A DNA stretch of 60,544 bases, counting the filler, from Hausera hauseri (lineage: Eukaryota): assembly GCA_046269625.1 (NCBI GenBank). It is 10 parts of 10 records of this genome, joined end to end, with 100 filler letters (N's around TTAATTAATTAA, not from the genome) between each part and the next. Parts side by side here need not be neighbours in the genome. Positions count along the whole stretch, not along the records: positions 12,917 to 17,980 come from JBJURY010347157.1; positions 18,081 to 23,060 come from JBJURY010372148.1; 8 more parts are not named here. One strand, given 5' to 3'. This document shows positions 1 through 46,699 of the stretch, piece by piece. Below the pieces are notes generated by a model. That model did no database searches. It worked only from the letters and a program-made list of their open reading frames with translations, and was not told where the DNA came from. Positions within the stretch are counted from its first letter, which is position 1, and every line of letters begins with the position of its first letter. The position numbers were made by a program, and so were the translations under genes.

Positions 1-77
1 ATTCATGTGGGCTGAGTATAATTACTTCTTAAAATGAAACAAAAATGTTCTGAAGTAAACACTTCACAGAAACAATC
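1..77 (+). repeat. 77-bp exact direct repeat of the contig end (copy 1)
   Basis: 1-77 is identical to 7532-7608. Confidence 0.97.
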
Positions 78-120
78 ATACCAGTAAAATCAACAGACTG
101 TCTGCAATTTCCTTCCTTAC

Positions 121-3100
121 CCTGGAATCCAAGATCCACCAGAAGTTGAGGAATGGCTGTTGTATATTCTTCCATCAGATGCTTTATGGTCATTGTCCAA
201 AGATGATGATGCTGATAGCTGCTCATCCTTTACCAGGTAATAGTTGCTCACACCCATGGGAATCAAACATACTGAAATACAAAAATAGTGTTTACTTTTT
301 ATTAACATTTCTATCATGGATGATTTTCAATGAAGTTGTTTTTTTTCCTTCATCACAGAACAAAACTTATTAATATAGCTTGTCAACTCATTACTACATT
401 TAATATGATATATTCATGCACACGGATCTGAAAAGAGACAACCAGGCAGGCAGTCACACACCCACACAAACACATATTATATGACTCACCCACTGGTGGA
501 GGAATTTCTGATACATTAGGTACTGTGGGTAAGCCAGTGCCAAGGGATGGTGGAGTTGGAGTCAGCAAAGGAGGCCGAAGAGTAGTTACAGGCTTTTCAG
601 TGGATGGATTGCAGCCCAAAACATCAAATCTAATGAAAATTACAAACAAATAAACAAAAATCATTAAGTATTTGGCTTTATAAAAGTACGAGGAAAGGAA
701 TTTCAGCAAGTAAATAAGTGTAAATATTTGGCCCACAGAGATGTGGTTCCTGAGAAGAATGATCAAAATATCATGGACAGACAAAAGGTCAAATGAATTT
801 GTTTTGGAAGAAGCTAATAAGAAAAGAAGAATAATTTTGGATATAAGAAACTACTACTACTTCCTGTCCGGTTTATTTGCAGAATATAAAGCCACTGCTG
901 TAGAACTCCATCTCTCAATGTGCCCATTCTTATTTTGTCAAGCATCTTTCTCTAGGATGTTGCTGGTCTTCCTATCCCCTGTGTCCCTTTGGATTACACT
1001 TATATAAGAAAACAGCAGCCAGACTTTTTTGGAACATGTATTGAAAAGGGGGAGATTTGAAAATTTAATAACAACAGGCCAAATTGAGAGCCAGAGACAG
1101 AAAATTATAGATGGTTTGATAACATAACATCTACAAAAGTCGTCAGTTTGATACTGAATCCAAGAAATAGGGAGATGTAAAGAAACATAATCACCAATGG
1201 CATTAGGCAGGGTACTTGAAGATGCTGATTTGGTTTCATTTTTCAATGACAGAAATGTAATCATGGATAAAAGTGAATCGTGATTATATTAGATTAAATG
1301 CTTTAGTTTTAAATATTATGAATTAATAAGCAATAAATATCAGATTACCTTAGAGAAATACCATTATGACTGGTGACTGGCATAATGCGAATGTATCGGG
1401 CCATTATATTTTGTGTAAACAAGTTTGTGACAGGTGAATCTGTGTCAAAATTAGCTTTGAAAACCCTGGCATTTCCATCCTGCTTTTCTGAATATGGAAG
1501 GAAGTCATCACCATCAATGCTGTAATAAACCTTCAATCCAGTCACCCATCTGTCCTCTTTCCCTTCTCCTTGTGTAACAATGCCAGATAAATATTTGAGC
1601 TCTCTGAAGTCCACTTGAATATATGGAGACGTGTCATTCAACCTATAACGAAATCGTAATCTCATTTATGGTCAACATGCTAATGAAAGAAGATTCATGG
1701 AACTACAAAATTAGTAACTGCATATGTAACTATAGCCCAGAAAATCAGTTCAAACTTATTTAGTCATGCAAATATTTTTAGAATATATAATTGTCATTAT
1801 GTTCTCAGAAAACTCAACAAGCCTTTGATTTGTGATAATATTAATATGCTATTAATTCATTGTATTAAAACACTGTTTTATTAATGAGAAATATGCTGTA
1901 AACAAAATAGTAATTAAAATTTAAAAAAAAATTTACTCTGGTATCCAAGAGCCTTGATAAGTTCCTTCAGATAATCTTCCAAGTTCAGGCCCATGTTTGT
2001 CAGTTTTTGAAGATGACTGTAATTGAGTATCCTCAATTATTTTTTCGTTCTTCATTCCCATCTCTTTCATGCATCCTAAAATATATAATCAATTATTTTG
2101 GACGGCATTATTAATCTTGACTGACTACTCAAGGCAAAGATATGTGCTGTGCAAGATCACTGTTTTCTACAATTTAGAAACCAATTAAGAATGGCAGCTC
2201 TCATCTACTCTTACTCAGTAAATGCCCTTCAGAATACTGGTTATTTGCAAATCAACAAAAACCACACTTCCCTCTCTCCCTCACTCATGATAGCTTAACC
2301 AATATCTTCAAAACAGGAAGAAAGAGTCTTTCAGTTGTTTTTAAACCTTTATTGTTGTGGACATTCTTTAATACTGTGCCACAAAAGTTTAATATCGTTC
2401 GTCTATCCATCATATTTGTTTCCCTCACTTTCCCTCAGTCAATTACATATAGAAACACAGGCTTCTGTCAAATTTAAATTTTCCAGTAACTATGGAAATG
2501 TTTCATATCATTATTGACTAAACTATGTACAATTTATTGTCATTTGAATTTTAAAAGAATGATCTATCACAATGCTGTATTTATTGTAATATAGCTATGC
2601 TAGCTATCATACTCACTCAGAACAGGCACAGGAATTGTTGGAGGCGATGGTGTTAGATTGTTGGAAGAGCTTGCAGTTGAGCCACTGGTGGGAACTCCAA
2701 ATGGCAATGTTGGTTTAAGTGTGGTATAAGAAAGAGGAGAACACTGGATGTAGTTCAGTCTCAAGCCTGGACCTGATGGACCCCAAGTTACAGGTGAAAA
2801 TCTCACATACCTTGCCACAATAACCTGCAAATTTCAGCAACCATTAGAATGTGCCACTGTTAGCTATTACATATAGCTGCACTATACATGAGATTTCCAT
2901 TTGTTAGTACAAAATATTTCATGAACTAAATGCATGAGTAAACATTGTAAAAACAGCTATGAAAATTGTTCTGACACAGAAGACAGTAATCAATACAACA
3001 GCAGTTGCCACATTTAAATCAAAGATTTATATGAGTAAATAGTTGTTTTCACTTACACGGGGAAAATAATTCATTGCAACTGTATTCCTATCTGAGTTTC

Positions 3101-6100
3101 CAGCATAAATGATTATTGCACCATCATGGTTCCTCACTGGGTAGAATGTGTAACCATCCATACTCGTGCTTATAGTGAAAGTGGACACCCATCTGTCATG
3201 ATCAGGGCTACCCTGGGTCAGTATTCCTGACAGATTCTGGGGCACCAAGAAATCCACCTGATGCCATTGGTGTGTGTCAAATATGCTGAGGAAAATGATC
3301 ATATTTTTAGGATAGAAATCAGTTTGTAAAATATATTCTCACTACTACTCTTCATGAATAAATTTAACTGTTTCAATGCATTTATAACTATTCGGGCAAG
3401 TGTCTATAGATTTAACTAATGTTCTTCAATCAATCTCTGATTTAAGTTGATTATCTGACCAAAGTGTAACTATAAAATCCTTTCTGTTCAATCTGTAGAT
3501 GTTGAATTTCAAACAACAGAATGACATTGGGATATCAAAAGCCTGCTATTTGTCAACTTTAATAACAATACCAAAGTCCAGGAGTACTGCTCTTTGGTGA
3601 GAAAATTTACAAAGTAAGCATAGCTTTTGTAAATGGAAGATTACAATATCTATATAAAACAATTTTATTATGATACAATAATAGATCTCTTACTAAGGAA
3701 CCCATGAGGAGTGCTGGTTGTTCAGTCTACCTTCAGAGGCTCTTGTCTGAGGGCTGAAATCACTAGAGGAAGTTAGCAGATTATCAGGCAACATGTTTGG
3801 CAGGTCCACATTCATGGGCACATTACATTTCATTGCTGCAATGACAAAACCATTAATGTCTTTAGATCATAAATGCATTTTTAAACTTCACATTGATTGT
3901 CAACATGTAATGATTGAAGTGAACTCAAGCTTACATATTCAATCATGATTTTCATAAATGTATTACCATCAAAAACAAAGAATAAACAACTCTGCTAACA
4001 GGCTAACCAGATTTTTGTTCACCAAATCAAAGTGTTCTCCTGCACTGTCATCAATGTTTTGTCTGTGTAACAGTTACTACTATTATAAACTCATGGTTCA
4101 GGTAGATTTTAACACTTATTTCCAATAAATTGTATAAACAAAAGCCATATAAAATCTATTTTCTTGCAGATAACAGTAACAAAACTCACTAGGAATTTTA
4201 GAAAATGGAGTTTCAATTGCCACTGTCGATGTTTTGTCATACTTTCCTGATGAAGGAGTCTCTTGATGCTCAGGAGTTGGTGTTACTGTTAATTTGGGAA
4301 AAATAAAAACAATACTGCATTTAATACTCTCTTCTCAGTTCATGCCAAAAACCTTCTACTAGCATTTGAATATTTGTCTCGTAATAAACATAGTCCAATG
4401 AATGTAAATTATTTATTAACTCACGCTTACCTTTCTAATTACTTCAGTAAGACTTCTGTCTTCTTATTAATTATTTTTTAAAGCAGTAACAAGATCATCA
4501 CATTTAAACTTTACTAAGGCATATAATATTTTACACCGACTGTCACCACACAACAAAATAAACTCCATACAAAATGTTTTGTAACTTTTCAAAGTATCAC
4601 AACATAATTCTGCCAAACTTTTAAACACAGCTATATAAACACATTGGAAACAAAACAAATCATACCTAGACAGTCACATTTGTATCTGATCTCATAATCA
4701 TGACAGTCTATGCCAATGGCAATCATATTATCACAGATCAGTCCACTGTCTACTGTGCACGATGCCTCTTGCAAGCTCCAATAGTCATCTCCAGTAGCTG
4801 AATCTCTACATTCAATCTCTGTGATGCTTCCACCTGGGCAAAATTCAACCATTTCTTCTGGTGTCATCTTTTCATAATCACCACTTGACCCCACAGGAGT
4901 GGCTTTATTTATCCAAGAAGACCATTTATTCACACACAGGTGAGATGTAGACACATTGTGTTTAACACTGGGTGCAGTAGTTGATTCAAAATAATTTTCA
5001 GTAGGTGTGGACATGGACTGTGTTGAAGGCAATACTGTTGTCAATGAGCACACATCACACAGCACTCTGATTTCATAGTCCTCACATATGTGACCAGTAT
5101 CTGCAATACACATGAGTGCTGCATCATTCAGAGAACACTCAACAAGAGGATCAGTTGGATCCCACATGATTTTCGTTGCTCTGACTCTGCATTCAATCCT
5201 GCAAGATAATACATTACATTAAGCAGATAGATACTTTTCCTACAGTCTCATCTTTCATGATATGTCTTTGATAGATTAATTTCTATGACAAACAAATGAT
5301 CAGTTGATTAACTTTAAGGACAAAATATGACTCACATTTTCATAATATTATGTCGTACATACTTTAGATGCCTAACTAAGCTGTTTACACTTAAATCATC
5401 AACTGAATACTTAATTATCAAGAATTCTCTACTGCATTACATCTGCGCTTAGAAATGTACAAATGTGCAACTGACCCAATAACAAAATCCTTCGCACATG
5501 CATTCGTGACAAGCGGTTCCTGGAAGAAGTTCTCTGTTTCTCCTGAAACATCATCTGGTACATTTTTACTGATCCATGGTGACCAGTACAAGCAACCTTG
5601 TGCTGAAAATACATGGTTTGAAAGATTCTTATCTTACTTTTAAATTAAAACATGCCTGTTTGCTACATCAACAAAAAACATAATGAATCATAATGAATGC
5701 TTATTCTTGACAAATTCCCTGTTGCAACATATAAAAAAATATTTTTTGGATCATTTCTCCCCTGAAATGCAATATGTTATTTATTATCAACAAATGGCAC
5801 TGATGAACAATTTAACTTACTTGTTGACACAGTACTTAGTGATGGAGTAATCTGTGTTACAGTAGCTGGCGTTGGAGTTGGAGCTTCGCATCCCAAAACA
5901 TTAAACCTCAGTCCAATGGAATTATGAAATTCCACAGGTCGAATCTGGACATAACGGGCAACGACTGGAGTGAAAAAGTTGGAAACTGTTGAATGTTGAT
6001 CTGAATTTCCATTAAACACAACTGGCTTATGTGTTCCACCAAGGATAGGATGAAAGTTGACTCCATCAGTGCTGTAGTAAATGATGTACTTTTCAACCCA

Positions 6101-7213
6101 AGATTCTGCATCTGCTAGACCTTGTGTAACTATTCCAGAGATTGAGTATGGAGCAAGAAAATCTACCTGAATATACTGGCTTTTGTCTGAAACACTGTGT
6201 AGAAAACAGAAAAAGAGAAAAGACATTATTTCTGAATAAATGTTGCTCACTTAGGAAAAAAAACTCAACAAACCCTACTTTCAAAAAGTGATTTTTTTTT
6301 TTTAAAATATACATGTATCACAAACAGCAAACACCAGACAGCAAAATGCCAATGGAGCTCAGCAATCAGTTTGAGTCTACATTAATTATTTAAAATCATT
6401 GTGAGTAAATAAAGTGACCTACGCAGGAGACCAGCCTCCAGCCATGGATCCATCTTTCTGAATGTAAATTCTGCCTCTTGAAGGATTATGATGTAAGTCA
6501 AGATAACTTGAGGCAGTCAGCTGTCTGTCACTGATAACTTGAGGATTACTTAAACCCATTGGTACATCACACCCTAAGATAAATAAAATGACTGTTTTAA
6601 GTTAGTGATCCAACAACAAATTATTTGTTGTCAACAATTCTTCAACACAATTTACAAATGTACATTTTCAAAGAATAAACTGTATGCAGATGATATGTAT
6701 CATCATCAAGGTTGAAACACCAAGCAAATCCGTACAAGCTAATAAGTCTACTTCTGGTACTGAACAAAATTCTTACTGGGAGGTATTGCAGGTGTAGCAG
6801 TATTCCCTACTCCTGGTGTAGCAGTATTCCCTGTTCCTGGTGTTGCTGTGGATTCTGAAGATGGTGTTGGAGTAACTTGAGGTGGAACATTTGGTGTACA
6901 GCCAATAACAGTAAATCTAAGACCTATACCATTCGTAGAGGCCTTAACAGGGACAATCTTCACATACTGTGCGATTATGTCCCGGCTGAAAAGAGCCCTT
7001 ACTGGTGTGCTACTGTCTGTGTTTCCAGTGAACATAAATGGTGTGTTAACATTGTCAGATTCCATATATGGAAAGAAATTCTTCCCGTCCACACTTAGAT
7101 AAACATAATATTGCTCAACCCAGCGAGGAGAATCTGGACTGCCTTGCGTCACCACTCCAGACACGAGTTTAGGCTCCCTGAAGTTTACCATTATCCAAGG
7201 CTCAGCTTCGGAT
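121..7213 (-). CDS. Multi-exon fragment of a large secreted mucin-like protein: four F5/8 type C (discoidin) domains, WxxW domains and P/T/S linkers
   Basis: Exons encode repeated YIQVDF..SGIVTQG..WV..Y.S.DG..F..F.GN.D....ARYV...P..GLRF..GC motifs (6777-7213, 5820-6192, 3055-3285+2636-2825, 1349-1643+487-630), first-half exons C..PMG....QL.ASS...GGW (121-272, 6420-6590, 3695-3840, 1938-2076) and WSSWIN/CHDYEIRYKC WxxW motifs (4647-5200, 5435-5600). GT-AG borders seen; exon limits approximate. Confidence 0.85.
741..1230 (+). mobile_element. Intronic 3' fragment of an RTE-like LINE
   Basis: MWFLRRMIKISWTDKRSNEFVL, then after an insertion ..RFENLITTGQIESQR; typical of RTE ORF2 C-termini. Confidence 0.75.
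851..1001 (-). mobile_element. Second LINE 3' tail nested antisense in the first, with 10-bp TSD
   Basis: Flanked by ATATAAGAAA at 841-850 and 1002-1011; minus strand ends in a (TAG)n tail and encodes a PKGHRG.GRP-like remnant. Confidence 0.7.
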
Positions 7214-7531
7214 CTGAAAACAGTCAAACAGAAGGGGACAAATGTTAGTGTACCTTGAGAAAGATATATGTAACAAATTCCTCATATATGGGTATGCAAT
7301 AAATTTGGAGCATAAATATTTGTAATTAATTTTAATTTCTTGATTCCTGTGATTAATATTCATGAAAGTAAAGCGGCATAACTTCACAATTTTGTAAAAT
7401 TTATTCTAGGTAGCTCAAGTATCGTTAAGTATTTGAGGGTAATGCACAATGTTGGGTTTTCTTTTACATCAGGAACAAAAGAAATGCTGATGTGGTGCAT
7501 GCCATGGTTGAGAAAACTTCAGACTCAATCT

Positions 7532-7608
7532 ATTCATGTGGGCTGAGTATAATTACTTCTTAAAATGAAACAAAAATGTTCTGAAGTAAACACTTCACAG
7601 AAACAATC
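7532..7608 (+). repeat. 77-bp exact direct repeat of the contig start (copy 2)
   Basis: Identical to 1-77; typical of a circularised assembly-graph node. Confidence 0.97.
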
Positions 7609-7708
7609 NNNNNNNNNNNNNNNNNNNNNNNNNNNNNNNNNNNNNNNNNNNNTTAATTAATTAANNNNNNNNNNNNNNNNNNNNNNNNNNNNNNNNNNNN
7701 NNNNNNNN
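7609..7708. other. Artificial contig spacer (first of nine; others start at 12817, 17981, 23061, 27936, 33211, 40101, 46116, 51028)
   Basis: 44 N + TTAATTAATTAA (stops in all six frames) + 44 N, repeated identically. Confidence 0.99.
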
Positions 7709-8955
7709 AGAGAAGAACCGCTTAGCAATTGAAGTAATATCGATTTAGAAATATTGGGTATAGACCCAGTAGATATTCCTCCCTTGATGGGAATGATTAA
7801 AATCGCATTTGCGGTACCAAAATAATATACAAACCTAGAAGACCGAATTAAAATAGAAAATGAAAGCCGAGCGCAGATTTACAGCCTGAGAAACCGAATC
7901 ATTTTCCCAATATATGAGGAGACTCAATACGTAATATATGCTTGTATCGTAGAATTGGACGAATATAAGGACGAGTTTAGTTATGTCGGTCAGATTATGA
8001 AATTTCTAAGAGGGACACACGATGAGTTAAAGGATGCATATAAGATGCTAGATAAAGCTATAATGGCAAAGCCAATGATCGCCAATCAATTGTCGAAATG
8101 GTCCGAATTAGTAATGCGGTTGAGCAAGTTAGTGGAAAACCTAAGAAAGAATCCCCAGAGAGCGAGCCTTCTGTAAAAAAGCAGTTAGAAGAAAGCGCTC
8201 GTAACTTAGAATTAATACTGGCAGAAATAGACATCCGAACGCGATTCGAAGCATCACGACGACTCAATTTTATGAAAAAGAAACAGGAAGCAACGATACT
8301 TGAAGAGATCTATGAAATGATCGAAGAGACAAATTTTACCGAAAAGCGAAATATGACTTGCAATTTTTATCCACGATTGAAAAATATCCGATTAGAAGGA
8401 GTTCAACATTTAACATATAAACCCATTGACGAGATCTCTGTCCAAGATATCGAGACACTAGATGTTTGTCCGGAACACCGAGTCACTTTAATGGACACAA
8501 TAAAATTTTTGCATAAACCTCAAGAATGGATGGCTGGATCAGATCAAAACTTCTATATCGAATTGATAAAAATAAGAAATGACCAACATATTAGTTTTCA
8601 GGAATCTAAGTTCGTAAAGAAACAATTAATGCTGAAATTACGACAAGTCGAAGAAACGTGCATAAAATCAAAACAAAGAGTAACGAGGCTAGATGACCTG
8701 GCAAAAGAACTCGAAATTTACCGAAATAAATATTCTTTCACAGAATCAGAAATCAAGAATAAGCGAGAATTCGTACAAAGATGGCAAAAAGATGTAATCA
8801 TTGAATTAACAGATTATCACCAAAAGTGACTCATTGATTCTAATGAATTCGGTGAATTACTAAAAATGATTCAGTATGCCTGTGGGAATGGAGTAGGTTT
8901 CCGGACTACGCAGATGAAAGAAATACAGCCCAGGTTGAAAGAAATTTGAGAAAAC

Positions 8956-10236
8956 ATGCAAAGAACGAGTGTAGCATTGGTAGGCACTGGACTTCCAGAT
9001 GTTGGAAACGAACCGGAATGGGACGCGTACTTCGACGCAATACTGGCCGAAAAACCCATGACCCCAGTACAAATAAACGAGATAAAAATGTGCCCACAGA
9101 ACAGGAGATTCAATGTGGAGATGCTTCTGGATTCAACGCTAGCTGAAAAAGACTTAATCGAACTAATTAACGTAAACATTGCTGAAAGTAAGGTAGGACA
9201 ACTTATTCCGACATTAACTAAATTATCTATTGAGAACACGATTTATAGCACGGTGCAGAAACTTTTGATAAGGAAATACGCTAAAATCTTGAGGACCAAA
9301 CCTGAAGTAGCGATGAAAGTACTAATATCATCCGAGTGGATGGTCGAAAAAGAATACGAATTAACTACATATTCCTATGTGAAGGACGTAAGAGAATGGT
9401 TATTAAATAATGGCGGAACCAATGAGGTAAACTATAGATTTTATTTTAGAGGCAAAATACTCGACGACCTAGAGCAATTTATAGATGTCGGAATCATTCC
9501 CGGCGAAACAAACCGAGTAGTAGTTACAATAGCTAACGAACAAACCAAGGAAGAAGCTACACGCAAAGCTAAGGCAGAACAATGCGTAGGACAAATCATG
9601 GGAGTCCGAGATGCCGCTATGTATTTTGAGTATTTGCAAATAGATGAAAATAAGGAAAAATATAATATAAATTTAGTACCACTGAGAGAAATAACAACGA
9701 AAGGGCCAAAGCTGAAACGTCCAGTAAGCCGACCTAAGAAAACGCGAGAAGAAGTTGTCTATAATGGAGAATTGATTAGAGAATTGAGACAGCTGTCGAT
9801 TCCGACTCTCAGTACAGATAATGAGAAATTAAGCGAGTTAATGAAGTATCTAGTACGAATCGTGAATTATTCAAGTCTTCGAGGTGACGTATTAGACGAT
9901 AAAGAAAAGATAATTTTTGAAGCAGCTAGAACGATGAGAAGTTCACGCTTTAAACTATCAAAAAGTAACTTAGCCGATGAATCGGTAATCGATAAGATTA
10001 TGGTAGAAAATACCAAGGAGGAACTAAGAAAAGTACTACTATATTTAGCTATCAAAGTAAACCCTAATCGAGAGAATGAAATTAATAGAGCTACAAGCTT
10101 AGCACGAAGAGCGGAAAGAAAATTGCCCCGTGAAGTAAATTGGTCAAGACTATTTGACAAGGAAGAAGATAGACGAACTAGTAATAAACTCGACGATATG
10201 TTACGTAATTTAACAATAACGAATCGGATTGGGTAA
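8956..10236 (+). CDS. Polyprotein segment with ubiquitin-like domain (~9310-9535) and degenerate Bcl-2-like helical domain (~9800-10160)
   Basis: MKVLISSEW..EYELTTYSYVKDVREWL..YRFYFRGKILDDLEQFIDVGI..VVVT fits a beta-grasp Ubl; DKIMVENTKEELRKVLLYLAIKV aligns by eye with EKMFATGITREKVVTAIAYLLYKV of copy B. Confidence 0.65.
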   Translation: MQRTSVALVGTGLPDVGNEPEWDAYFDAILAEKPMTPVQINEIKMCPQNRRFNVEMLLDSTLAEKDLIELINVNIAESKVGQLIPTLTKLSIENTIYSTVQKLLIRKYAKILRTKPEVAMKVLISSEWMVEKEYELTTYSYVKDVREWLLNNGGTNEVNYRFYFRGKILDDLEQFIDVGIIPGETNRVVVTIANEQTKEEATRKAKAEQCVGQIMGVRDAAMYFEYLQIDENKEKYNINLVPLREITTKGPKLKRPVSRPKKTREEVVYNGELIRELRQLSIPTLSTDNEKLSELMKYLVRIVNYSSLRGDVLDDKEKIIFEAARTMRSSRFKLSKSNLADESVIDKIMVENTKEELRKVLLYLAIKVNPNRENEINRATSLARRAERKLPREVNWSRLFDKEEDRRTSNKLDDMLRNLTITNRIG

Positions 10237-10250
10237 TTAGCTTACTCACC

Positions 10251-12010
10251 TTGGTGATGCTAATTAATCACATAGGCGCTGTAACTGTCTACGACTGTAA
10301 TAAGTTTAAGCTAGGACAAAAATATTCCCTGATGGATCTGGAAGTGTGCGAAGATGCCAGACCACACAAATTGGAGACAAAAGAGAAAAATTACTTCCTA
10401 TATCAGCAGCGGGAATTGATGTCGCTAGACACTCATCTATAATCAAACCAACGACTCCATTAATTCCAATGAACTTAGAACGTCAACACTGCAAGCAAGC
10501 CAAGGAAACTGGAAGAATACAATGGGACAGTATGCAATTAGAAATGCAATCAGGAAAAATAATCAGGGCATACAAAATAGTGGCCGGAAGATTGGATATG
10601 CATAGTGGACATTATAGTGGAGCAGAATACGACACCGGGAAGGGATTGGAGGCAAACGTAGTGGTTGTGGATTTCAACGAATTAGAAATTCGATCATAGA
10701 AGGTAATGTTTCATATTGTCACCAAACTGTATATAGAGAATCAAAAATGTCATTTACAAGATGGGACCTGTACTTTTAGAAGTTCGGTTATAATATGGGA
10801 ACATCCTTCTGGAAGAAATTGTAATTTTATTAAAATTAAAGAATTAAAGTTTAATGAGACTGCAAGAAAGCGATATGTGGACAAATCAGAAACAAATTCG
10901 AGGACACATGAGGATGTATCAGAACACTCTACACCTACTATATTAATTTCGGATCAGCATGAATTGAAATTTACTAAAATAGAGATGATTTCTGGCTGTG
11001 ATGTAGTGATGTTTGCTACGAACTACAAGGCGTTTTTCGTCGCAGAAACGGACATAAGTGCGAAGACGTATAAGCTCGAAACACAGGATGTCGGCATCGA
11101 AGATTACTTGAAAAATAGAGATAATTACTTTTGTTACAAGGGACAAGTCGGAATAACGGAACTATATCATAAAATGATAATGAATGACTGCAAATTGGAT
11201 ACGAAAATCATGAGAACTAAAATGGCTCTGATATATGCAAACCAATAATTGGCTTCACCAATAATTCCCATGAGAGAAGGAATTGTCGGTCTGGTAACAG
11301 GCCAAGTATTGCTAACTTATGAATGTGAAAACAGAGATGTACCCATCAACGTGGAAGAGAAACGTTGCATTCAGGAACTTCCTGTTATTTACCAAAATAT
11401 TCCGAGATTAGCTACACCGCTGACGAGAGTGTTATTGGATAACGCTATTCAACCGACCATCCTTAAAAATTGTAAGGCAAGCTTAGGAGAACCTATGTTT
11501 AGACGTATTGAGACAGACTGGGTCGGATTGCCAAATGGAGGTATTATTGCCGCTCCAAATAAATTGACAGGAACATATCTCGCGGAAGGAATTACAGACG
11601 ATCAATTTCAAGACGCCTCATAGAAAGGTATATAGGCCGAAGGAAATTGAGGCTTTTAGGCAATTCCTTGCCTTTCCACGACAACGAATACATGAGCTAA
11701 ATCGAGCTATGGCTTCTGTAGTAGATGATACGCGATACCAGGCTAAATGGGAATCTTTACTTGGCGTAAATCATTATCAGCGAGTAACAACTAAAATACT
11801 TTACAAAATGTGGAGAAGATTTTTGATATTCGGACAAGCCACATCCGGATTTTTAGCGATATACTTCCTGATTCAGATGGTTAAAGCAGTAGTCCAAGCA
11901 GTAATAAATGGATATGAGATATTTACATTGACTGGATTTTCATGTAAAATATTGACTGCAATCATAACGCCTTTTGGAAAATTCTTGAAAGCATACGAAG
12001 AAAATAGATG
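10251..12010 (+). pseudogene. env: Envelope glycoprotein (chuvirus-G/gB-like class III fusogen), frameshifted
   Basis: AVTVYDCNK...YSLMDLEVC start, Cys-rich ectodomain, C-terminal FLIFGQATSGFLAIYFLIQMV TM; several stops and frameshifts. Confidence 0.75.
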
Positions 12011-12674
12011 GAAATCGGACGTAGAACGCCATGTCGGCTATTATAATGGTAAACGAAGAGGAAGGCCTATATTTCTACGGAAACGAAAATTTCCAAAACC
12101 TATTACACGAAGAAATAATTCAGATAATGACGAGCCTAAGGGAGGAGAAACACTTTCAGGAATAAATAGACATAAGATGTACTCTGTCGTTAAAGCGCCA
12201 TTATCCATGTTACCTCCTACCGCTCCATTCTACAAAGATTGTGACAAACGATCCATGAGTTCATATCAGACGGAAATTTATAAAAGAACAATTAATGTAG
12301 AAGATCCTTATGAGGGAACAAAACGTTATGGAATTTTACGGAAAATGTGCTACCGACAATCCACAGATGATCCCAGACTATTGTACTTACCGAGGGAACC
12401 TAAGAATATCGAAATTAGATCGACGGTTTGGGACAATTCAAGGCTAAAAACCTTCCAGAATACTGAATTACACACTAACAATCGCAAACCATTAATTAGT
12501 ACGCATGAAGCGGAAGAATTGCACATAGAAAAGAACGGGCTATATCCAAACGAAGAATTGAAACAGTTGTCGGAGAATATAGTAACCTCTCTCGAAATTC
12601 GAATCAATGGACATAAAATATCGGCGACAAAACGTCCAAAAGTAGCAACAAATTGTTTCGGGACATTGATAGAA

Positions 12675-12916: not shown

Positions 12917-13121
12917 AATTAAAATTAATCCTAGCCCCACAGGCTATCGCTGCCCTAACATATTACGTATAAGTTAGTGATAGGTAAGACCAACATCTCT
13001 GCAGTATTCAACCCTAGAAGTAACAAAATCTCACCACATACGTAACCTTGTTCACTCCACTAATTTGAATAACGCTTTATTGAGAAGTCTCTCCCAACCC
13101 AAATTAGTGAAGGATTGAACA
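12917..13121 (+). repeat. 3' part of the 5' LTR of copy B
   Basis: Ends ...GAACA, 2 nt before the PBS; truncated by the contig start. Confidence 0.7.
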
Positions 13122-13123
13122 AC

Positions 13124-13141
13124 TGGTGCCGTGACCCGGGA
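13124..13141 (+). promoter_or_regulatory. Primer-binding site complementary to the tRNA-His 3' end
   Basis: TGGTGCCGTGACCCGGGA versus the known His-type PBS TGGTGCCGTGACTCGGAT; located between the LTR end and gag. Confidence 0.85.
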
Positions 13142-13296
13142 CCACTCGATACCCAAACGCACGCATTTGATATTTTTAAAAGTTTACCTTTGAAAGAAGC
13201 AAAATTAGTACTACTAGAAAAGGCACTAAATATCAAGAAGATACCGAACCACATTACGGTCTAGAGTATTTGGATAATCTGTCAGAAGAAAACGAA

Positions 13297-16200
13297 ATGG
13301 CCCATACAAATGTTGTAGAGCAATACGTGCAATCAAAGGCGGACTATACGCTACCCATGAAAAAGTTTAGTGGAAAAGAAGATGTACAGGATTTTATGAT
13401 GGAGTACGAAGTGTACTCAAGAAGTTTTGGATGGAATGACCAACAACGGATGGAAAGATTACCTCTTCATTTAAAGGGAACAGCCCTAACAATTTATTTC
13501 CAGATGCCAGAAGATGATAAGAAGGACTGGAAGTCCATTAAGGATAAGTTGCCGCAGAAGTTTCTAGTTGATCCCTCTGGAAAGGGGAGGATAGAAGAAT
13601 TTATACGAAGAAGGCAACGTAAGGATGAGTCAGTCCAAGATTATGTGTGTGCATTGGAAAAATTGGCAGCACGGGCATATCCTGACGTAACGATAAGAAG
13701 TAACGCTTTGTTGGCCCAATTCCAGTATGGATTGGAAGGAAAGTTAAGGACAATAATATTACAAGCTGACCCACCCACGTTCCAAGAGGCGATAAGGAAA
13801 GCTCGTAAAGCCGAACGGGATATGGAACTATATAGGTGGAACAAGTCCAAAAGTTATGAAGATAAACAAGATAAAAGGAAGAATAATAGCACGCAAAAAT
13901 ATCAACGATACGATAGGAATCGAAGCCCATCTCAAACCTCAGCAACAGAAGCAGAATCAGATATAGAAAAGAAGGTCAGATTTAAGCTGAAGAACGATGG
14001 AGAAAAGTCAAATTATAAAAGGAAGTCCTCTATGAAGGATGGAAGAGCATTGCCTAATATAGATTCGGAAGGAAGGTTGAAGTGCTTTAATTGCAATAAG
14101 TATGGCCACATAGCAAAATCATGCAGGTCACGAAAAAGAGATTCTTCAAAGCCCGATAACAGTAAACAGAAAAAGAAGAAGGATTACACATCAGCTACCT
14201 CGGATGAGTCATCTGATAAAGAATACGAAACAGAAGATAGCGAGCACGAAAAGAAAGATAAAAAGAAAGAAAGTGTAAATTATGTTAACGAAATATTGTC
14301 CCAACGAATGAAAAAGCAGTTAGCCATAGAATTAAACGACTATAAAATTCAACAAAAACGATTACGAGAAAATAGTATTTGCGTAACGGAAGAAAAGCCT
14401 AAAGGAGGAAAACCTCGTCCAGAAAGAAAGAAAGGTAACAAAAAGATAATAGAAGTAGAATCCCGCGAAACATCTGAAGAAAGAAGTAACGTAGGACAAA
14501 AAGGGAAAGGACGAAAGAAAAGTAAACCCGGTGAACCAACACCGGAGGAAAGTGAGGAAGAAACGCAACCAGCAAAGATTTTTGATGAAACTGTTATCGA
14601 ACAAGTAATACATGACATAGACGTAGACCTAGATGCCGAAGATGATCTCATTCAAGCAGTCATTGCCATAGATCCTGAGAACATACTTGATGTAAATCAA
14701 GCCACAAGTACGATATTGAAGTTAATAGATAATAAGGTATCTTCAGTTAAGATAAAGGAAATTTTATTTCAACTATTATTACTGGCCCACGATATTAGTC
14801 CAATTAGAGAGATAGCTCGGACAATACTGGCTAAAGCAGCTGAAGATGAAAAAGGAAGAAACGAAACAGTAAGGATAACGTTAAAAGAAGGGAATCAGGA
14901 TATCAGAGTTATTAGAATGAATGAAGCAGATGATATATTATCGTTGCGAGAAAGAATCGAAGACTTAGAACCATTTTACAAGGAAAAAGTATATGGGTTA
15001 AGTTTTTATGGAAGAACGTTATATGGTTATGATAAGTTATTACGAATAGGATGTAGAAGTGAAAATTACAACCCAATTATGATAACGGAAATACACCCTG
15101 ACGCAAGGGCAGAAGAAACGATAGAAAATATAATGAGGGAAATGCAACCACCTGAGACAGAGGAACAACCAATTGGTGATACACAGGATGTCACAGTACA
15201 AACTGAGGCTAGAAGAAGAGGGCGACCGAAAGGAACAAAGATAAGCGATATTCGAAATAAAAGAGATAGGAATGAAGAGATTGTAAGACGTCTGCTATTA
15301 GCAGGTACAGATACGACACCGGAAGCTATAGATATAGATCCTTTGTTAAGAACGTTGCTAGCGAAGTTACACACGTCATTTGCATCGTTTGATATGCAAG
15401 TAACAATTCCGGACGAACTATTCCAAACGTTGCGTAATGGAATGCTAAGAATCAGTAGACAATTTTATGAGAATATCAATGAAGAGAGAATTAACGAATT
15501 ACACGAACAAGACATATTGGAAAAGATGTTCGCGACAGGCATTACCAGAGAAAAAGTTGTAACAGCTATTGCCTATCTCTTGTATAAAGTAATCGTTATC
15601 AATTACCAAACACAAAATTTAGAGGAAATCGAAAGAAATATAAAAGTGACGGTTAAAATTTTACGTGATACGTTAGAAAGTTGGGTACAGTGTAGAGGGG
15701 GATGGATACCAAGTCTAATGAACGGTAGAATAAGACCCGAAGGAGGTTCGCATCAAAGAGCAGACACCATACAATTAAATACTATGAAACAAGGCTTAGG
15801 CGGTATGTCATTCATGGAGATATTACAATTATTATTGATAGCATCCATATGTATGCCAAAGGCCATGGGCGTGGTGGCCTATGATTGCTCGAAACCCAAA
15901 GAAGGGCAGAAATACTCATTGGTTGATCTTGAGAAGTGCCCAGAAGCCGATCCAGAACAATTAACAACAACTAGTGGTCATAGATATTGGGTATATCAAG
16001 AATCGGAGTTTATAAAAGTTAAAATTCGAGAATGTTACGTAAAGAGATCGTTCTTTCTATTTAATTGTGCATACTATTCTGGGAACTCCGCAATTATCGA
16101 ACCAACGACACCTTTTGAACCAATAATAATATCACGGGCGGAATGTCAGGATGCTTTTAAAATCGGAGTCATAACAATCCAGAACGCACAAATACCAGCA

Positions 16201-17337
16201 GTACGAAATAAGATAAAGTATACCCGAATTTTTAGAGCTGGAAGAATAGATAAAACAATGGAAGGAACCTGTAAAGGAGTGGAATACGACGTTGGAGGTA
16301 CCATCGCACCCCGAACAGTAGCCATTGAAGATTATCAGGTCCAGCTGAAGGAATATGAAGGATTGTTCGATTCTCAAACAAAACTCATGACAATTATGAA
16401 CGAATGCGAATACGAAAACGGAGAATGTGATACGGGAGAATCCAAAATGACATGGGAAGTATCATCGAATCGGTGTCACCTTACTTTATTGAAAGAAGGA
16501 AAGTTTAACAAGACAATAGGAAAGACGGCTGAAAAAGAATCAACAACATATAAGGAAGGAATTAAAGAAGTAAGGATGACAGAAGTAGCAACAGTAGTAT
16601 ACTCGGAAAATCCGGAAGAAATGATGCGATTTAAAATTGTTGGAACAATCAATAAGTGTAATGAAGAAATGTCCAAAACTAATTATAAAGGTATATACCT
16701 TTCAACTAAAGAAGTAACTCAAGCTAAAACAAAAATAGATAAAAAGGATATAAAATTAACGCAATATTTTGACAATAAAGTTGACTTTTTAATTAACTAC
16801 GTCAGGAAGGAAATTAGAAGTTTATACAGGGAAATAATACTGAACGAATGTAAACTAAATTATGAAATTATCCGAAATAAAATGGCGTTGGTCATAACGA
16901 ACCCCGACATGGTAGCCCCAGTAATGCCGTTTGGTGATGGGATGATCGGAAGAGTTATGGGCGAAGTATTGATAACTATTGAGTCTAAGAAGGTGGAAGT
17001 AGCAATTAGGCCAACAGAAGAATGTACATCAGAATTACAAGTGATTTATAATATGGAACCTCGATACGTAATGCCGGTGACAAGAATACTGCTAGACGTT
17101 AATGCGAAGCCCACTCAGTTAAATAATTGCACTTTTAATATGTCACCAATGTTTAAACTAGACGAAGATAAATGGATAAGAATGCCGGAAAGAGAGCCAG
17201 TACCGAAACCAGAAACATTGAGTTTAATTAATCTGCAGAGAAACCAGAAATTCGAACCTCTTATTGGCATATCACAAGGAGGAATTTATACACAACAGAA
17301 TTTAAAGGATTATTGGCGAATGTTACTGTTTCCCTAG
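13297..17337 (+). CDS. Gag - Ubl - Bcl-2-like - Env polyprotein (copy B) in one uninterrupted frame; the frame continues past in-frame TAGs to the contig end
   Basis: Gag capsid (KKFSGKEDVQDF..LPLHLKGTA..RRQRKDESVQDY..FQYGL), CCHC knuckle CFNCNKYGHIAKSC at 14083-14124, Ubl ~14866-15099, BH1/BH2-like motifs 15526-15705, signal peptide 15805-15870, VVAYDC at 15871. Confidence 0.9.
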   Translation: MAHTNVVEQYVQSKADYTLPMKKFSGKEDVQDFMMEYEVYSRSFGWNDQQRMERLPLHLKGTALTIYFQMPEDDKKDWKSIKDKLPQKFLVDPSGKGRIEEFIRRRQRKDESVQDYVCALEKLAARAYPDVTIRSNALLAQFQYGLEGKLRTIILQADPPTFQEAIRKARKAERDMELYRWNKSKSYEDKQDKRKNNSTQKYQRYDRNRSPSQTSATEAESDIEKKVRFKLKNDGEKSNYKRKSSMKDGRALPNIDSEGRLKCFNCNKYGHIAKSCRSRKRDSSKPDNSKQKKKKDYTSATSDESSDKEYETEDSEHEKKDKKKESVNYVNEILSQRMKKQLAIELNDYKIQQKRLRENSICVTEEKPKGGKPRPERKKGNKKIIEVESRETSEERSNVGQKGKGRKKSKPGEPTPEESEEETQPAKIFDETVIEQVIHDIDVDLDAEDDLIQAVIAIDPENILDVNQATSTILKLIDNKVSSVKIKEILFQLLLLAHDISPIREIARTILAKAAEDEKGRNETVRITLKEGNQDIRVIRMNEADDILSLRERIEDLEPFYKEKVYGLSFYGRTLYGYDKLLRIGCRSENYNPIMITEIHPDARAEETIENIMREMQPPETEEQPIGDTQDVTVQTEARRRGRPKGTKISDIRNKRDRNEEIVRRLLLAGTDTTPEAIDIDPLLRTLLAKLHTSFASFDMQVTIPDELFQTLRNGMLRISRQFYENINEERINELHEQDILEKMFATGITREKVVTAIAYLLYKVIVINYQTQNLEEIERNIKVTVKILRDTLESWVQCRGGWIPSLMNGRIRPEGGSHQRADTIQLNTMKQGLGGMSFMEILQLLLIASICMPKAMGVVAYDCSKPKEGQKYSLVDLEKCPEADPEQLTTTSGHRYWVYQESEFIKVKIRECYVKRSFFLFNCAYYSGNSAIIEPTTPFEPIIISRAECQDAFKIGVITIQNAQIPAVRNKIKYTRIFRAGRIDKTMEGTCKGVEYDVGGTIAPRTVAIEDYQVQLKEYEGLFDSQTKLMTIMNECEYENGECDTGESKMTWEVSSNRCHLTLLKEGKFNKTIGKTAEKESTTYKEGIKEVRMTEVATVVYSENPEEMMRFKIVGTINKCNEEMSKTNYKGIYLSTKEVTQAKTKIDKKDIKLTQYFDNKVDFLINYVRKEIRSLYREIILNECKLNYEIIRNKMALVITNPDMVAPVMPFGDGMIGRVMGEVLITIESKKVEVAIRPTEECTSELQVIYNMEPRYVMPVTRILLDVNAKPTQLNNCTFNMSPMFKLDEDKWIRMPEREPVPKPETLSLINLQRNQKFEPLIGISQGGIYTQQNLKDYWRMLLFP

Positions 17338-17715
17338 CAGAGACAACGAGTAATAGCAGAATTAACAAGAAGAGTGATGTGGGACGGAGAAGGTTCACCA
17401 CAATGGGAAAACATAATGGACAGAGATTATTTGAAGAAAGTCACAAGAAGTGTTATGGAAAAGATGTGCGGAAAATTCCTCTATTTTGGCCAGGCTGCTT
17501 CAGGATTTTTAGCAATATATTTCATCATCAGTGCCCTACGGACAATATTCACTGCACTTGGTAAAGCTTACAGAATACATGCAGCAGTAGGATGCTCTTG
17601 GAAAATCCTCATAGCGGTAATACCGACAGTTGCTAGTTGTTTTCCAGCAAACCATGACGCCAAATGGAAGAGAAAAATTCTTAAAGGAAGAAATAACGAT
17701 ATCGAAAAGAATTAG
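17338..17715 (+). CDS. env: In-frame continuation of Env: membrane-proximal region and TM
   Basis: After the TAG at 17335-17337 it reads QRQRVIAELTRRVMWD...KFLYFGQAASGFLAIYFIISAL, homologous to the TMs of copies A and C. Confidence 0.85.
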   Translation, partial: QRQRVIAELTRRVMWDGEGSPQWENIMDRDYLKKVTRSVMEKMCGKFLYFGQAASGFLAIYFIISALRTIFTALGKAYRIHAAVGCSWKILIAVIPTVASCFPANHDAKWKRKILKGRNNDIEKN

Positions 17716-18872
17716 CCATATAGTACCCTAAATGATAGAAATAATGACGACGAGAACGATCCAAATGTCCAAGGGAGACGTGAGAGATATTTAACAAGAC
17801 TCAGAAAATTTTCCTTAAGGTCCCAAAGACAGAAGTAGAAACGAAAATTGATTACTGATTTACCTCACTTAGATCCAGCAGACGAATACCACGGACAAAC
17901 ATATAACGAACAAATGCTAAGTCCTTCGGCTCCCCAATATGTGAAACACGGAGGCATGTATCCCACATACCAAATATTACNNNNNNNNNNNNNNNNNNNN
18001 NNNNNNNNNNNNNNNNNNNNNNNNTTAATTAATTAANNNNNNNNNNNNNNNNNNNNNNNNNNNNNNNNNNNNNNNNNNNNAACTAGTGCCCATTGAAAGC
18101 TTCATATACCCATAGAAAATACCGAAACTAGGAAAAGATCAATATACGAGTAATATTGAAGTAGAACAGTTCTGTGAAACTTTTTGAATTCAACGTCAAA
18201 ACCGCCCATAACGTAATTTCCACCGACAAAATGCCAAAGCTTAACATTTGACATAAACACTCTAAAACTGCTACAAACCAAATGGACTGAAATAAAAAGT
18301 TGTCTAAGTGAATAATTTATGGTTTAGAAAACTATTCGGTGATGAATACTCTGTTAAGTGAATTACCGCGTCTAAATCGTCTAGTTAAGAATATCAAAAA
18401 AAAAAGAAAAATCAGTCGACAAAAACAATTTAATGAATGAAATATGCGATTGACAAATATCAACTAACCAGGAAATCCGAACGGAGAGAGCAAATCGAAC
18501 ATATGACCAACGAACGGATAATAAAAGTCAGACCATACACGAAAAAAGAAGTAAATAGCACATATGAGTAATTTGAGGTGACTATTCAGACAAAACAGAC
18601 ACACATACACGCACACGCGCACACACACGCAGAGACAATGTTAATTATTGTATTGTATTTGCCAACAGTTATTCTCGCAACATCCCATTGATAAAAAATA
18701 ATCGGTTTCGGTATTGGATATCACTCCAACTAGCCAGCCAGATCCTTTGGATGTTTATCGACATAAGCCGTCAAAACATGCCTTCTCTCCATCAAAAACT
18801 CCCCCAAAAAATTTTTTTTCGGTGACTTTTTAAGTGATGCATGCGAGATTAATCGGTGGCTAGTGCAATGAA

Positions 18873-25088: not shown

Positions 25089-27935
25089 TTAATATGCTGA
25101 AGAATCAAATAGAGCCTTCAAGATCAAAAATAGGCCCATATTGGAAAACACAAATATAGCTGATTGGCTGCATGAAGAGCATATGAAGCTGATCCATGAA
25201 GCCGATAAGAGCCAGGATAAGAAGAGTGGATGGGCTCTGGCAACCATCAAGAGACTGCTTATATATGTACACAGATATTCCCCCATGCGAGGCAGTTCAT
25301 ATATACAGCTTCCGGACTGGATCGCTAATAAGAAAACATGTATCAATGTTCAAAACAATGACAACAAGTGCATCATGTATGCCATTTTATCAAAACTCGT
25401 AACGGATCAAAGGCATGCAGCAGATCGGATTTGGCTATATAAGTATGTGCAACACAACTATGACTTTCAATGCATCATATTCCCTCCATCCATAGATAAA
25501 ATCAAAAAGTTCAGCCGCATCAACAACATGTCCATCAATATCTTTTGATTGGATGAGAAGAACAAATTCTACCCCTTGCAAATATGTGATGATGAATTGG
25601 AAAATCATAGGGATCTGCTCCTATTAGACGATGGTGATAAGAAACATTATGTGTGGATCAGGAATTTTAAGCGTCTAGTCAGATCCCAAATAACAAATCA
25701 CGAACATGGAATCGAAATATGCAAAAGATGCTTATCGCATTTCAGCGGCAAGTTAGCTGTGTAGAAGTTGAAGTAGCACAAGATGTATTGCAACAACAAT
25801 TATTGTGTAAGGTTAGAATTTCCCAAAAAGAATTATATCGAATTTATGGAATTTGAGAAGAAGATCAAAGTCCAAATTGTCATCTATTGCGACTTTGAGG
25901 CTATTCTCAGACCACTGTATACATGCACCCCCAGTCCTCAACATAGCAGTACAACAGCATACCAATATCACGAACTCTCATCGTATTGTATGTATGCCAA
26001 AGGACTAGACAATGAACCATATCTGTTTAGAGGTCCAGGTGAAGCAGCACATTTCATGAAGAGACTTGAGACATGGCTCATAAGCTTGAAAACATGTTAC
26101 AGCAATATAAGGACGACATGAGCATGTCTTAGATGCAAGAACAAGAATGGCGCAAGGCAGCATCATGCTACTTGTGTGACAAGTTCTTTACCAAGGGAAA
26201 TTGGAAAGTTAAAGATCACTGCCATTTTACAGGTGCATACCGGGGTGCAACATGTAACAACTGCAATCTACGATGCAAAACATGCACATATGTGCCGCTG
26301 GTATTCCACAATCTCAGCGGCTATGACAGCCACTTCATAGTCCGAGAATTAGGCAACATTGATGGCGATATAGAAGTGACCCCCAATAGTGAGGAGAAAT
26401 ATATCACTTTCACTAAGCATGTTGGTAAAATCCGATTTCGCTTCATCGATAGTTTTTGATTCATGTCGTCTTCACTGGGCAGTTTAGTGAAGAACCTGCC
26501 TACTGAAGAACTCAAGGAAACGAAGCGATTCTTTCCGGATACCTTTGACCTAGTTAAAAGGAAAGGAGTGTTTCCCTATGACTATAACATTATGGGAGAC
26601 ACTGGATGAGACCTCATTACCACCCAAGCGTGGTTTTTACAGCAAGTTGTCGGATAGGGATATCAGTGATGAGGACTACCAACATTCTCAGAACGTCTTC
26701 TACAGGCATTCCAATGCAGAACATTAGGGGAATATAGTGATATATATCTCTAAACTGATGTGCTGCTGCTGACAGATGTATTTGAAAGTCTCAGGGATGT
26801 CACAATGAAGCGCCATACTTTTGATCTAGCTCATTTCTTCACGGCTTCAGGGATGAGCTTGGCAGCAATGCTGCGCTATACCGGTATCAGGCTGCAAATC
26901 ATTAAGGACTACGACATGATCCCTATGATCGAAAGAGGCATTAAAGGGGAATATGCCAAGCCATTCATCGGTATAGTGAGGCTAACAACAAATATATGGC
27001 TGAATACGACTCAACAAAGGAGTCAACATATATTTCTTACCTGGATGCTGACAACTTGTATGGATGGGCAATGACCGTCCCATTGCCATATGATAATCTC
27101 AAGTGGGTTGAGCATCCTGATGACATTCCTATCATGAACCTGGACCCCGCTGGAGATATTGGCTGCATACTTGAGGTGGATATGGGATATCCGACTTCTA
27201 TCCACACAAGGCATCAACAGCTGTTTTTCCTCCCTGAATTCAGACCACCGCCCAATGGAAAGCAACGAAAGCTTCTTTGCCATTTTGGTAATAGGGAGAG
27301 GTATGTAGTTCACTACATCAATCTCCAGCAGGCAGTTAAACATGGACTCCGCATTACCAAGTTTCACAGAGCCCTCAAATTCAGCCAGTCCATGTGGTTG
27401 CAGTCCTACATTGATCTAAACACCAAGTTGTGGACAAATGCCAAAAGCGATTTCGAAAAAGACCAATTTAAGCTCTATAATAACAGCGTTTTTTGGCAAG
27501 ACGATGGAAAATATCCGCAACAGGATCAGCATCGAGCTTGTATGTGCTGGAAGCGTGCAAAGAAGCTTATTTCAAGGCCTAACTTTCATAGTAGAACCAT
27601 ATATGCTGAGAATTTGGTAGGGATCCATATTCTAAAAACATCAATAGTATTTAACAAGCCCATATATGTGGGTATGGCAATATTGGACCTATCAAAATCC
27701 CTAATGTACGACTTCCATTGTGATATAATGCTGACAACATTTAAGTCCATACAGCTGATGTATATGGACGCTGACAGTTTTATCTATCACATCGACGCGG
27801 AGGACATGTATAAGGACTTTTTAAAATTAGCCCAGCACATAGATACCTCGGATTATCCGAAAGATCATCCAAATTATTCTAGTACCAATAAGAAAGTCCT
27901 CGGGAACTTCAAGGACGAGGTGTATGGTAAGATAA
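25089..27935 (+). pseudogene. Protein-primed family B DNA polymerase of a Polinton/Maverick- or adintovirus-like element, decayed and 3'-truncated
   Basis: GSSYIQLPDWI, IYCDFEA (ExoI), DHCHFTGAYRGATCNNCNL (endonuclease VII-like), FHNLSGYDSHFI, RFIDSF, KGVFPYDY, YLDADNLYGWAM, KLYNNS/FGKTMEN, YMDADSF; many stops and frameshifts. Confidence 0.92.
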
Positions 27936-33195: not shown

Positions 33196-33442
33196 TTGTA
33201 TTAAGTATATNNNNNNNNNNNNNNNNNNNNNNNNNNNNNNNNNNNNNNNNNNNNTTAATTAATTAANNNNNNNNNNNNNNNNNNNNNNNNNNNNNNNNNN
33301 NNNNNNNNNNTATGTCCGTCTTCTTGAATTTGGTACACTTTTCCTCCATCGTAATATATTTCAGGCGGGAATCCATACAAAACCTGTAAAAGTTGTTGAA
33401 AAGAATAACCAAAGGAGATCACACAACTTTGAAGGTGGAGTA

Positions 33443-46115: not shown

Positions 46116-46699
46116 NNNNNNNNNNNNNNNNNNNNNNNNNNNNNNNNNNNNNNNNNNNNTTAATTAATTAANNNNNNNNNNNNNNNNNNNNNNNNNNNNN
46201 NNNNNNNNNNNNNNNACACCCGAATTCAATATCACAATCACGTTAATGATACGAAAGTCTATTTTCCGAATTAGTCTATTTTACCAAATTGGAATATTGA
46301 AGATTCAGTGCTTTTTGGCTGCGCTCCTAAGTCGCAAAAAATACTTGTCCCTTTACCGCGTTTAAGCGTCTGTTTATATACTGGTTGATTCAATATAATT
46401 TGGGATAACCAGCTGTTTTATTGCAAATTAAATACGATAAAATACCATTATCACTATTTACAGGAGTTAAATTTACAAATTCATTACATTCTGCCGCACA
46501 TTAATATCTATGTTAGTAGTTGAAGGTTGGCCCTATCCAACACCCAACTATAACAATGAATGAAACTCAAATTTGAATAATATTATATGAGCAGGTAAGT
46601 CCTAACGTTCTCATTAGAATGTTTGCACTGATTTATAATGCTTGTACTGCGTGTATGTCCTGTGCAAGGTTAACTAGGTCTCAACCTATCTATAAAGTT

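Follow-up and report, generated by a model that had tools for sequence, protein, structure and literature searches.

A damaged Burro-like enveloped retroelement, probably from a flatworm, with ubiquitin-like and Bcl-2-like domains between Gag and Env

The window analyzed here, a 60,544-nucleotide stretch from assembly GCA_046269625.1, consists of ten contigs (34–42% GC) joined by N-linker-N spacers, and is animal DNA with several decayed transposons. In the third of them (contig 3, 12917-17980) lies a single long open reading frame (ORF), whose product, P0001, joins a Gag to a small helical domain, a ubiquitin-like (Ubl) domain, a Bcl-2-like domain, an internal signal sequence and an Env glycoprotein that resembles glycoprotein B (gB) and starts with the residues AYDC. 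The frame is preceded by a primer-binding site (PBS) and the probable end of a long terminal repeat (LTR) (Table 1). Except for the small helical domain, this order of domains, including the CCHC motif in Gag, had been proposed in an earlier note on this DNA, and Pfam, profiles, fold comparison and hydropathy all support it. With a probability of roughly 0.8, we read the contig as the 5' half of a damaged, enveloped LTR retroelement of the Ty3/Gypsy type, likely from a flatworm and similar to the Burro/GYPSM1 elements, the frame of which likely continued into protease (PR) and reverse transcriptase (RT) as well as integrase (IN).

Table 1. Features of the contig 3 element and its relatives in the window. 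Positions are those of the window; pLDDT, predicted local distance difference test.
Feature	Positions	Strand	Evidence or remark
Decayed relative on contig 2	7709..12816	+	helical and Ubl module ~9070-9546; doubtful Bcl-2 remnant; Env, 10287 onward; PTAP motif, 12216; beginning of protease at contig end
Probable 3' part of the 5' LTR	12917..13121	+	contig starts inside it; CA end two bases before the PBS; placed by position
PBS, 12/12 to the 3' end of tRNA-His(GUG)	13124..13135	+	exact reverse complement
Polyprotein ORF, Gag-helical-Ubl-Bcl-2-like-signal-Env	13297..17337	+	1,346 codons; closed by a premature stop that lies within the ectodomain of Env
Ty3/Arc-type capsid	13339..13830	+	Pfam Retrotrans_gag (residues 56-146) and Ty3_capsid; dArc2 E 1.1e-7
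Single CCHC zinc knuckle (nucleocapsid)	14083..14124	+	Pfam zf-CCHC, residues 262-277
Five-helix small domain	14629..14856	+	alignment and profile; model pLDDT ~76-86
Ubiquitin-like (beta-grasp) domain, without C-terminal di-glycine	14857..15096	+	profile and model
RGRP motif in the Ubl-to-Bcl-2 linker, presumably AT-hook-like	15217..15228	+	in 6 of 9 relatives checked
Bcl-2-like domain	15244..15714	+	BH1/BH2 core, most similar to BOK/BAX
Hydrophobic internal signal/anchor stretch ahead of Env's AYDC start	15802..15876	+	hydropathy; same place in 10 of 10 sequences shown
gB-like fusion glycoprotein (Monjiviricetes/chuvirus type)	15877..17650	+	Pfam; ectodomain cut by stop 17335-17337
Cytoplasmic tail/spacer toward protease	17651..17980	+	stops 17713 and 17836; PSAP 17923; Tyr-Pro 17956; contig end
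Decayed relative on contig 6, near P0016	28036..33210	-	helical and Ubl module ~32252-31782; Bcl-2-like ~31611-31163; Env from 31036; protease ~28800

The stop-free frame that the earlier note had described is real by comparison with 200 shuffles of the contig, in which the longest frame reached 210 codons. Gag to Env takes up ~860 codons, and the capsid is closest, among solved structures, to that of Drosophila Arc2 (dArc2). The proposed PBS also stands, its 12-mer being single copy in the whole window; the His_GUG tRNA end used for the match is listed in supplement 1 of PMC13524379. The LTR end that had been claimed with it, 205 bases long, is placed by the position of the PBS, and neither a second LTR nor a repeat pair was found in contig 3, which holds one end only. 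The Pol that had been included in the name of the polyprotein is likewise absent from this contig: the frame meets stops at 17335, 17713 and 17836, and the contig ends before any protease.

The Env region (residues 841-1346 of P0001) matches the Pfam family Monjiviricetes_fusion (PF24664) with an E-value of 5e-61, and is followed by two hydrophobic membrane segments (~17476-17565 and 17575-17650). Between this membrane region and the first protease, a Tyr-Pro pair is found in 12 of 14 sequences against 4.1 expected from shuffles, a comparison that does not amount to a probability as the sequences are kin, and in most of them it lies 28-61 residues upstream of the protease catalytic motif. An aromatic residue followed by Pro is a classic cut site of retropepsins. 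The tails also contain motifs (a fit to YPxL in 5/14, PSAP in 2/14, PPxY in 1/14, and PTAP in contig 2) that resemble the retroviral late domains described in PMC8402826. The distance of the Tyr-Pro pair would fit the N-terminus of a protease equally well. Searching the literature for the tail motif, a weak test, turned up only general reviews of late domains. Because contig 3 ends seven residues past its Tyr-Pro motif, a protease likely followed.

In every family member long enough to show both, the five-helix domain stands before the Ubl. No Pfam match was obtained with the Ubl of P0001 alone; a profile made of four family members matches ubiquitin-like domains, the best single-domain one being the UBL of ubiquilin-2 (E 1.3e-5). 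The model of this domain, built on ten sequences (mean pLDDT 70; folding from the single sequence gave a useless 35), superposes on ubiquitin and SUMO with a Z of 11.7 and a root-mean-square deviation (rmsd) of 2.1 Å over 77 residues. Matches to the Ubl took up the whole structure-match (VIA) list, which has no bearing on the helical or Bcl-2 domains, and the leads of the Atlas searches were all under 0.9.

The assignment of the Bcl-2-like domain comes from several lines, each of them moderate, that together agree and give it, in our view, moderate support. Pfam Bcl-2 matches residues 734-803 of P0001 at E 1.6e-5 (25.8 bits, under the curated cut-off of 31.4), a single-sequence search found BOK (E 0.009) and BAX (E 0.07), and a three-sequence profile reached Bcl-2, Bcl-xL and BOK at E 0.002, with the Bcl-2 family in all of the 60 rows shown. 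Foldseek with the model retrieved BAK, Bcl-xL and BOK (E 0.002-0.004, template modelling score to target 0.45-0.52, rmsd 8-12 Å). Between P0001 and P0002, the relative nearest to it, identity is 57% in the capsid, 52% in Env, 49% in the Bcl-2 core, 32% in the Ubl and 6-32% in the linkers. The Bcl-2-like domain appears, in this pair, to be conserved as much as Env, and yet to be dispensable, because it is absent from P0005, P0006, P0007 and P0008, where the interval is in view.

With the segment from Ubl to Env as query, HMMER matched 745 proteins at an E-value of 0.001 or lower, of which 150 were listed and 28 of these scanned with Pfam; the top relatives are records of the European Nucleotide Archive. 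A word-based protein search, which is insensitive, gave no match with residues 420-1346 of P0001 and only P0002 with the Ubl+Bcl-2 alignment. Pattern searches led to three relative loci among 596 matches in metagenomes, and to no relatives among 63 matches in viral contigs or 62 in prokaryote genomes. Seven proteins (P0005, P0008, P0015, P0018, L001, L003 and P0152) carry Env, PR, RT, RNase H (RH) and IN in one ORF, and in several of these one-ORF relatives the protease domain is repeated and a further membrane protein is present. The order in L001 (3,426 codons) is Ubl > Bcl-2-like > Env > PR > RT > RH > IN. Its polyprotein (2-10279) includes protease domains, three in number, and a further two membrane proteins, and an RNase_T exonuclease ORF comes afterwards (10617-12104). 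In P0152 a protease is matched seven times, and there are also ankyrin repeats and C2H2 fingers. As a separate observation, P0008 (HBK71150.1), a full Ubl-Env-Pol polyprotein, is filed under a Flavobacteriaceae metagenome-assembled genome as a hypothetical protein, which is likely eukaryotic contamination of a bin.

We placed the Envs in a tree of 36 rows, the best long matches, by a quick IQ-TREE search (P0152 omitted as a near-twin of P0007; midpoint root for drawing only; long branches for contig 2). All three Envs of the window fall inside one clade of 15 rows (Shimodaira-Hasegawa-like approximate likelihood ratio test 96). The Ubl is present in nine of these rows, and the other six start downstream of its position. 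The Bcl-2-like domain is found in eight, being missing from the four relatives named above, uncertain in contig 2 and, in P0009 and P0013, with its interval not covered by the sequence. Outside the clade, four rows extend over both Gag and Env, and neither domain occurs in any of them. As cargo, the Ubl and the Bcl-2-like domain mark a defined clade of Envs in this tree.

Contigs 2 and 6 had been described as strongly diverged relatives with the same order of domains. This was right for the Env, homologous in both to that of contig 3, for the helical and Ubl module (leave-one-out E 3e-11 in contig 2, E 2e-27 in contig 6) and for the protease (Pfam E 2.5e-5 in contig 6; in contig 2 a D-[ST/M]-G-type motif seen by eye, with no Pfam match), but not for the Bcl-2-like domain of contig 2. 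There the supposed stretch is a plausible alignment by eye alone: 30 of 500 shuffles score as well and the hhalign probability is 0.4%. In contig 6 the domain is matched in two frames (E 1.8e-14 and 2.4e-9). Identity of this contig to P0016 is ~60%, and the stretches that match, which lie in several frames, contain 18 stops. The start of RT that had been read at its end turned out to be the lead-in stretch, the RT core being absent; the part between PR and RT aligns with relatives, none of which has a Pfam dUTPase match. Upstream in contig 2 (8056-8826, +) there is additional cargo, a Cys-His motif and a coiled-coil-like stretch that are B-box/Smc-like by eye and have no Pfam match. Upstream of the Ubl of contig 6 (32632-33210, -) and of P0016 we found a weak exonuclease-like similarity (E 0.002 in P0016, in two stretches), and the position of the exonuclease may differ between lineages, within the polyprotein or downstream of it.

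For an intact member we infer the following topology, cleavage and particle formation. The transcript of the 5' LTR would give one polyprotein, and tRNA-His would prime reverse transcription. The internal signal sequence would thread Env through the membrane of the endoplasmic reticulum, and a cut by signal peptidase just before AYDC would leave Gag, helical domain, Ubl and Bcl-2-like domain on the cytosolic side, where the signal helix would hold them as does a tail anchor of the kind found on Bcl-2 proteins. The Env membrane segments would bring the chain back to the cytosol, where one or more proteases of the element would release PR, RT-RH and IN, the conserved Tyr-Pro being a likely cut site or a motif recruiting the ESCRT machinery of endosomal sorting. 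The Ubl would work as a non-conjugated interaction domain, and Env would permit spread from cell to cell.

As to the Bcl-2-like domain, there is in our opinion a slightly better than even chance that, bound to the membrane in this way, it would act on apoptosis and keep the producing cell alive. A less probable but serious alternative is a Bcl-2 fold with no role in apoptosis, either binding other host proteins, as poxviral Bcl-2-fold proteins do, or forming a matrix-like spacer between Gag and the membrane. The place of the domain, exactly at the Gag-membrane junction, its loss in four members of the clade, its unrecognizable state in contig 2 and the lack, in the alignments inspected by eye, of canonical BH3 and NWGR motifs would go well with this alternative; however, the BH1/BH2 core with its terminal GGW is retained in all seven aligned members, and the conservation equals that of Env. 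Burro elements also carry BIR domains (PMC6431247), pointing to an apoptosis theme.

We regard as rather unlikely, taken as a whole, a broader picture in which these are infectious, retrovirus-like agents of a lineage that extends to flatworms beyond planarians, the signal helix tethering Gag together with an anti-death Bcl-2 to the membrane, and the tail of Env, not Gag, recruiting ESCRT for budding through its late domains (Tyr-Pro-x-Leu, P[S/T]AP). This picture also includes a single gain of the helical and Ubl module and a single gain of Bcl-2 followed by repeated loss, a history that we infer from a tree rooted for drawing only.

The contig 3 copy is defective, because there is a stop in the Env ectodomain and two more stops later. 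That the first one (17335) is programmed, by readthrough or for a secreted Env ectodomain, in a copy that is functional or domesticated, seems to us quite improbable. A frame of this length in AT-rich sequence and an Env profile match that resumes in the same frame past the stop, with the frame of the membrane segments unchanged, could be taken in its favor, but the nearest fragment, P0010 (76%), and the other relatives spanning this position have no stop there. Furthermore, the ectodomain of P0001 has lost a conserved cysteine that its relatives keep, two further stops follow, and contigs 2 and 6 are plainly decayed.

It was also considered whether Env and cargo might have come as a separate insertion, with a chuvirus-like glycoprotein gene of endogenous type placed inside an ordinary gypsy element, a situation that the earlier note had named as fatal to its claim and that would agree with the presence of this Env family in negative-strand RNA viruses and in stand-alone endogenous viral elements of insects. 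We consider it very improbable, since the fusion is in frame, base composition is uniform, no flanking repeats exceed chance level, the same order is kept in many independent relatives, and in the tree the Envs of retroelements group in a clade of their own, apart from 14 stand-alone glycoproteins. The same very low credence goes to an Anakin-like element of BEL/Pao, a group with captured chuvirus glycoproteins of the same Env class (PMC13524379, PMC7642597), as Peptidase_A17, DUF1758 and DUF1759 are matched neither in P0001 nor in any of eight RT-bearing relatives, the latter matching RT_RNaseH and Integrase_H2C2 instead, the capsid is closest to Arc, and the RT of L001 matches Ty3 best (329 bits; next 191, foamy 126). 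By capsid, relatives and this RT, the lineage had been correctly identified as diversified, retrovirus-like Ty3/Gypsy elements with captured Ubl and Bcl-2-like domains.

The evidence about the host comes from contig 4 (18081-23060, -), with a UPF1 gene that contains short introns and is at most 79% identical to any database protein found. In a FastTree of 74 sequences (the query plus 73 of 120 listed matches, with two flatworm references and no triclad reference), it grouped with those of Schistosoma (0.98) and Macrostomum (0.94). This host gene appears to be flatworm-like and, assuming that both contigs come from the same animal, contig 3 is likely to be from a flatworm too. UPF1-like cargo is said to exist in nematode elements; here a cargo origin was considered and dropped, as the short introns and the behavior of the gene are those of a host gene.

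Several points weigh against the reading of contig 3 as a Burro-like flatworm element. The flatworm assignment depends on one gene, on another contig of a concatenated file, and on two flatworm references. Contig 3 has no Pol, second LTR or target-site duplication, and its Ty3/Gypsy status derives from the capsid and the relatives. The statistics for Bcl-2 are moderate (Pfam under cut-off, profile E 0.002, Foldseek rmsd 8-12 Å), the domain lacks a canonical BH3 or NWGR, and it is missing in P0005, P0006, P0007 and P0008 with the interval in view. The link to Burro and Schmidtea consists of domain order and of Env motifs compared by eye.

Other contigs of the window contain further remnants. 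Contig 9 (46216-51027, -) resembles the 3' part of a retroelement from this broad group: an integrase-tail-like stretch is followed by a signal sequence and a second surface protein (49843-50598), and there are also a DEDD exonuclease-like remnant (~48822-49124; E 2.5e-6 to the exonuclease of L001) and a RING finger (47429-47785, Pfam 7e-8). Other gypsy-type families have left decayed RT/RNase H and integrase at 40697-41846 (+) in contig 8 and 52364-54551 (-) in contig 10, two contigs with a 155-base inverted match in common. Contig 1 (1-7608) has identical 77-base ends (assembly overlap) and codes for F5/8 type C and Mucin2_WxxW domains. At 33311-34117 (+) an ORF shows by eye a ubiquitin-like stretch that closes with a di-glycine-like motif and has further residues after it, with no Pfam ubiquitin match. 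Finally, 25093-25545 and 26945-27934 (+) look by eye like pieces of a DNA polymerase B that we take to be of the Polinton type, with no Pfam match.

It had been left open whether this architecture was undescribed, but it is already in print, and the find is no discovery of a layout. Gag-env-pol errantiviruses with a gB-type Env are catalogued in PMC13524379. Schmidtea mediterranea and Dugesia tigrina have the Burro/GYPSM1 elements, which are gypsy-like LTR retroelements of giant size (PMC6431247, where Jurka 2007 and Grohme et al. 2018 are cited). According to the text of PMC6431247, their ORF codes for retrotrans_gag with CCHC, Ubi2/SUMO-like, BCL2, env and PR-RT-RH-IN, and the env, in frame between gag and pol, matches fusion glycoproteins of arthropod and fish mononegaviruses. 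Like in Burro, contig 3 has Retrotrans_gag with CCHC, Ubl, Bcl-2-like and a mononegavirus-type Env in this order and in frame; Env is followed by protease in the broken contigs 2 and 6, and lies between gag and pol in one ORF in the relatives. However, Burro has two or three CCHC motifs where contig 3 has one, MATH, BIR, ankyrin and Smc cargo, an ORF of ~4,900 aa in over 30 kb, and a dUTPase-like domain between PR and RT (PMC6431247), while P0001 has no Pfam match to MATH, BIR, ankyrin or Smc and a much shorter Gag-Env interval, and the copy is broken and probably from a different flatworm. The same source describes the role of BCL2 as worth testing, and a published test of the activity of a Burro-type Bcl-2 domain was not found in the literature. 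BURRO1 is transcribed upon loss of SMEDWI-2, as stated in PMC8532177.

What the present data add is a compact form free of the MATH/BIR/ankyrin cargo, i.e., more tractable members, apparently from another flatworm, together with the Ubl and Bcl-2 mapped on the Env tree and a Tyr-Pro motif that is conserved from the Env tail toward the protease. Descriptions of compact members, of the PBS or of this motif may already exist in Repbase, Dfam, GyDB or the supplements of Sacco et al. 2022 and Grohme et al. 2018. Should the Bcl-2 domain turn out to be active, animals that depend on cell death to regenerate would have an apoptosis regulator carried by a retrotransposon. Another case to be compared are the non-canonical endogenous retroviruses attributed to Sacco et al. 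2022, which reportedly have Env between gag and pol in one continuous ORF, and are said to be restricted to nematodes and to carry no Ubl or Bcl-2 cargo. The errantiviruses with GAG-ENV-POL order and an Env of the HSV/gB type (HSV, herpes simplex virus) come from Platyhelminthes, Bryozoa and Nematoda, and include Smed_errantivirus_1-6 (PMC13524379, a list of intact copies only). Contig 3 resembles the flatworm ones in the gag-env-pol order and, by eye, Smed_errantivirus_1-6 in the motifs of Env domains I-II, with a 9-mer of the P0001 Env identical to Smed_4 and a 6-mer to Smed_3. It differs in that the main text of PMC13524379 does not contain "bcl" or "ubiquitin," and in that the PBS of the flatworm elements given there is "none" or "others," with no His. 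By order and motifs, the contig 3 element appears to belong to this flatworm gag-env-pol group, and within these comparisons it is best described as Burro-like, not as Burro proper.

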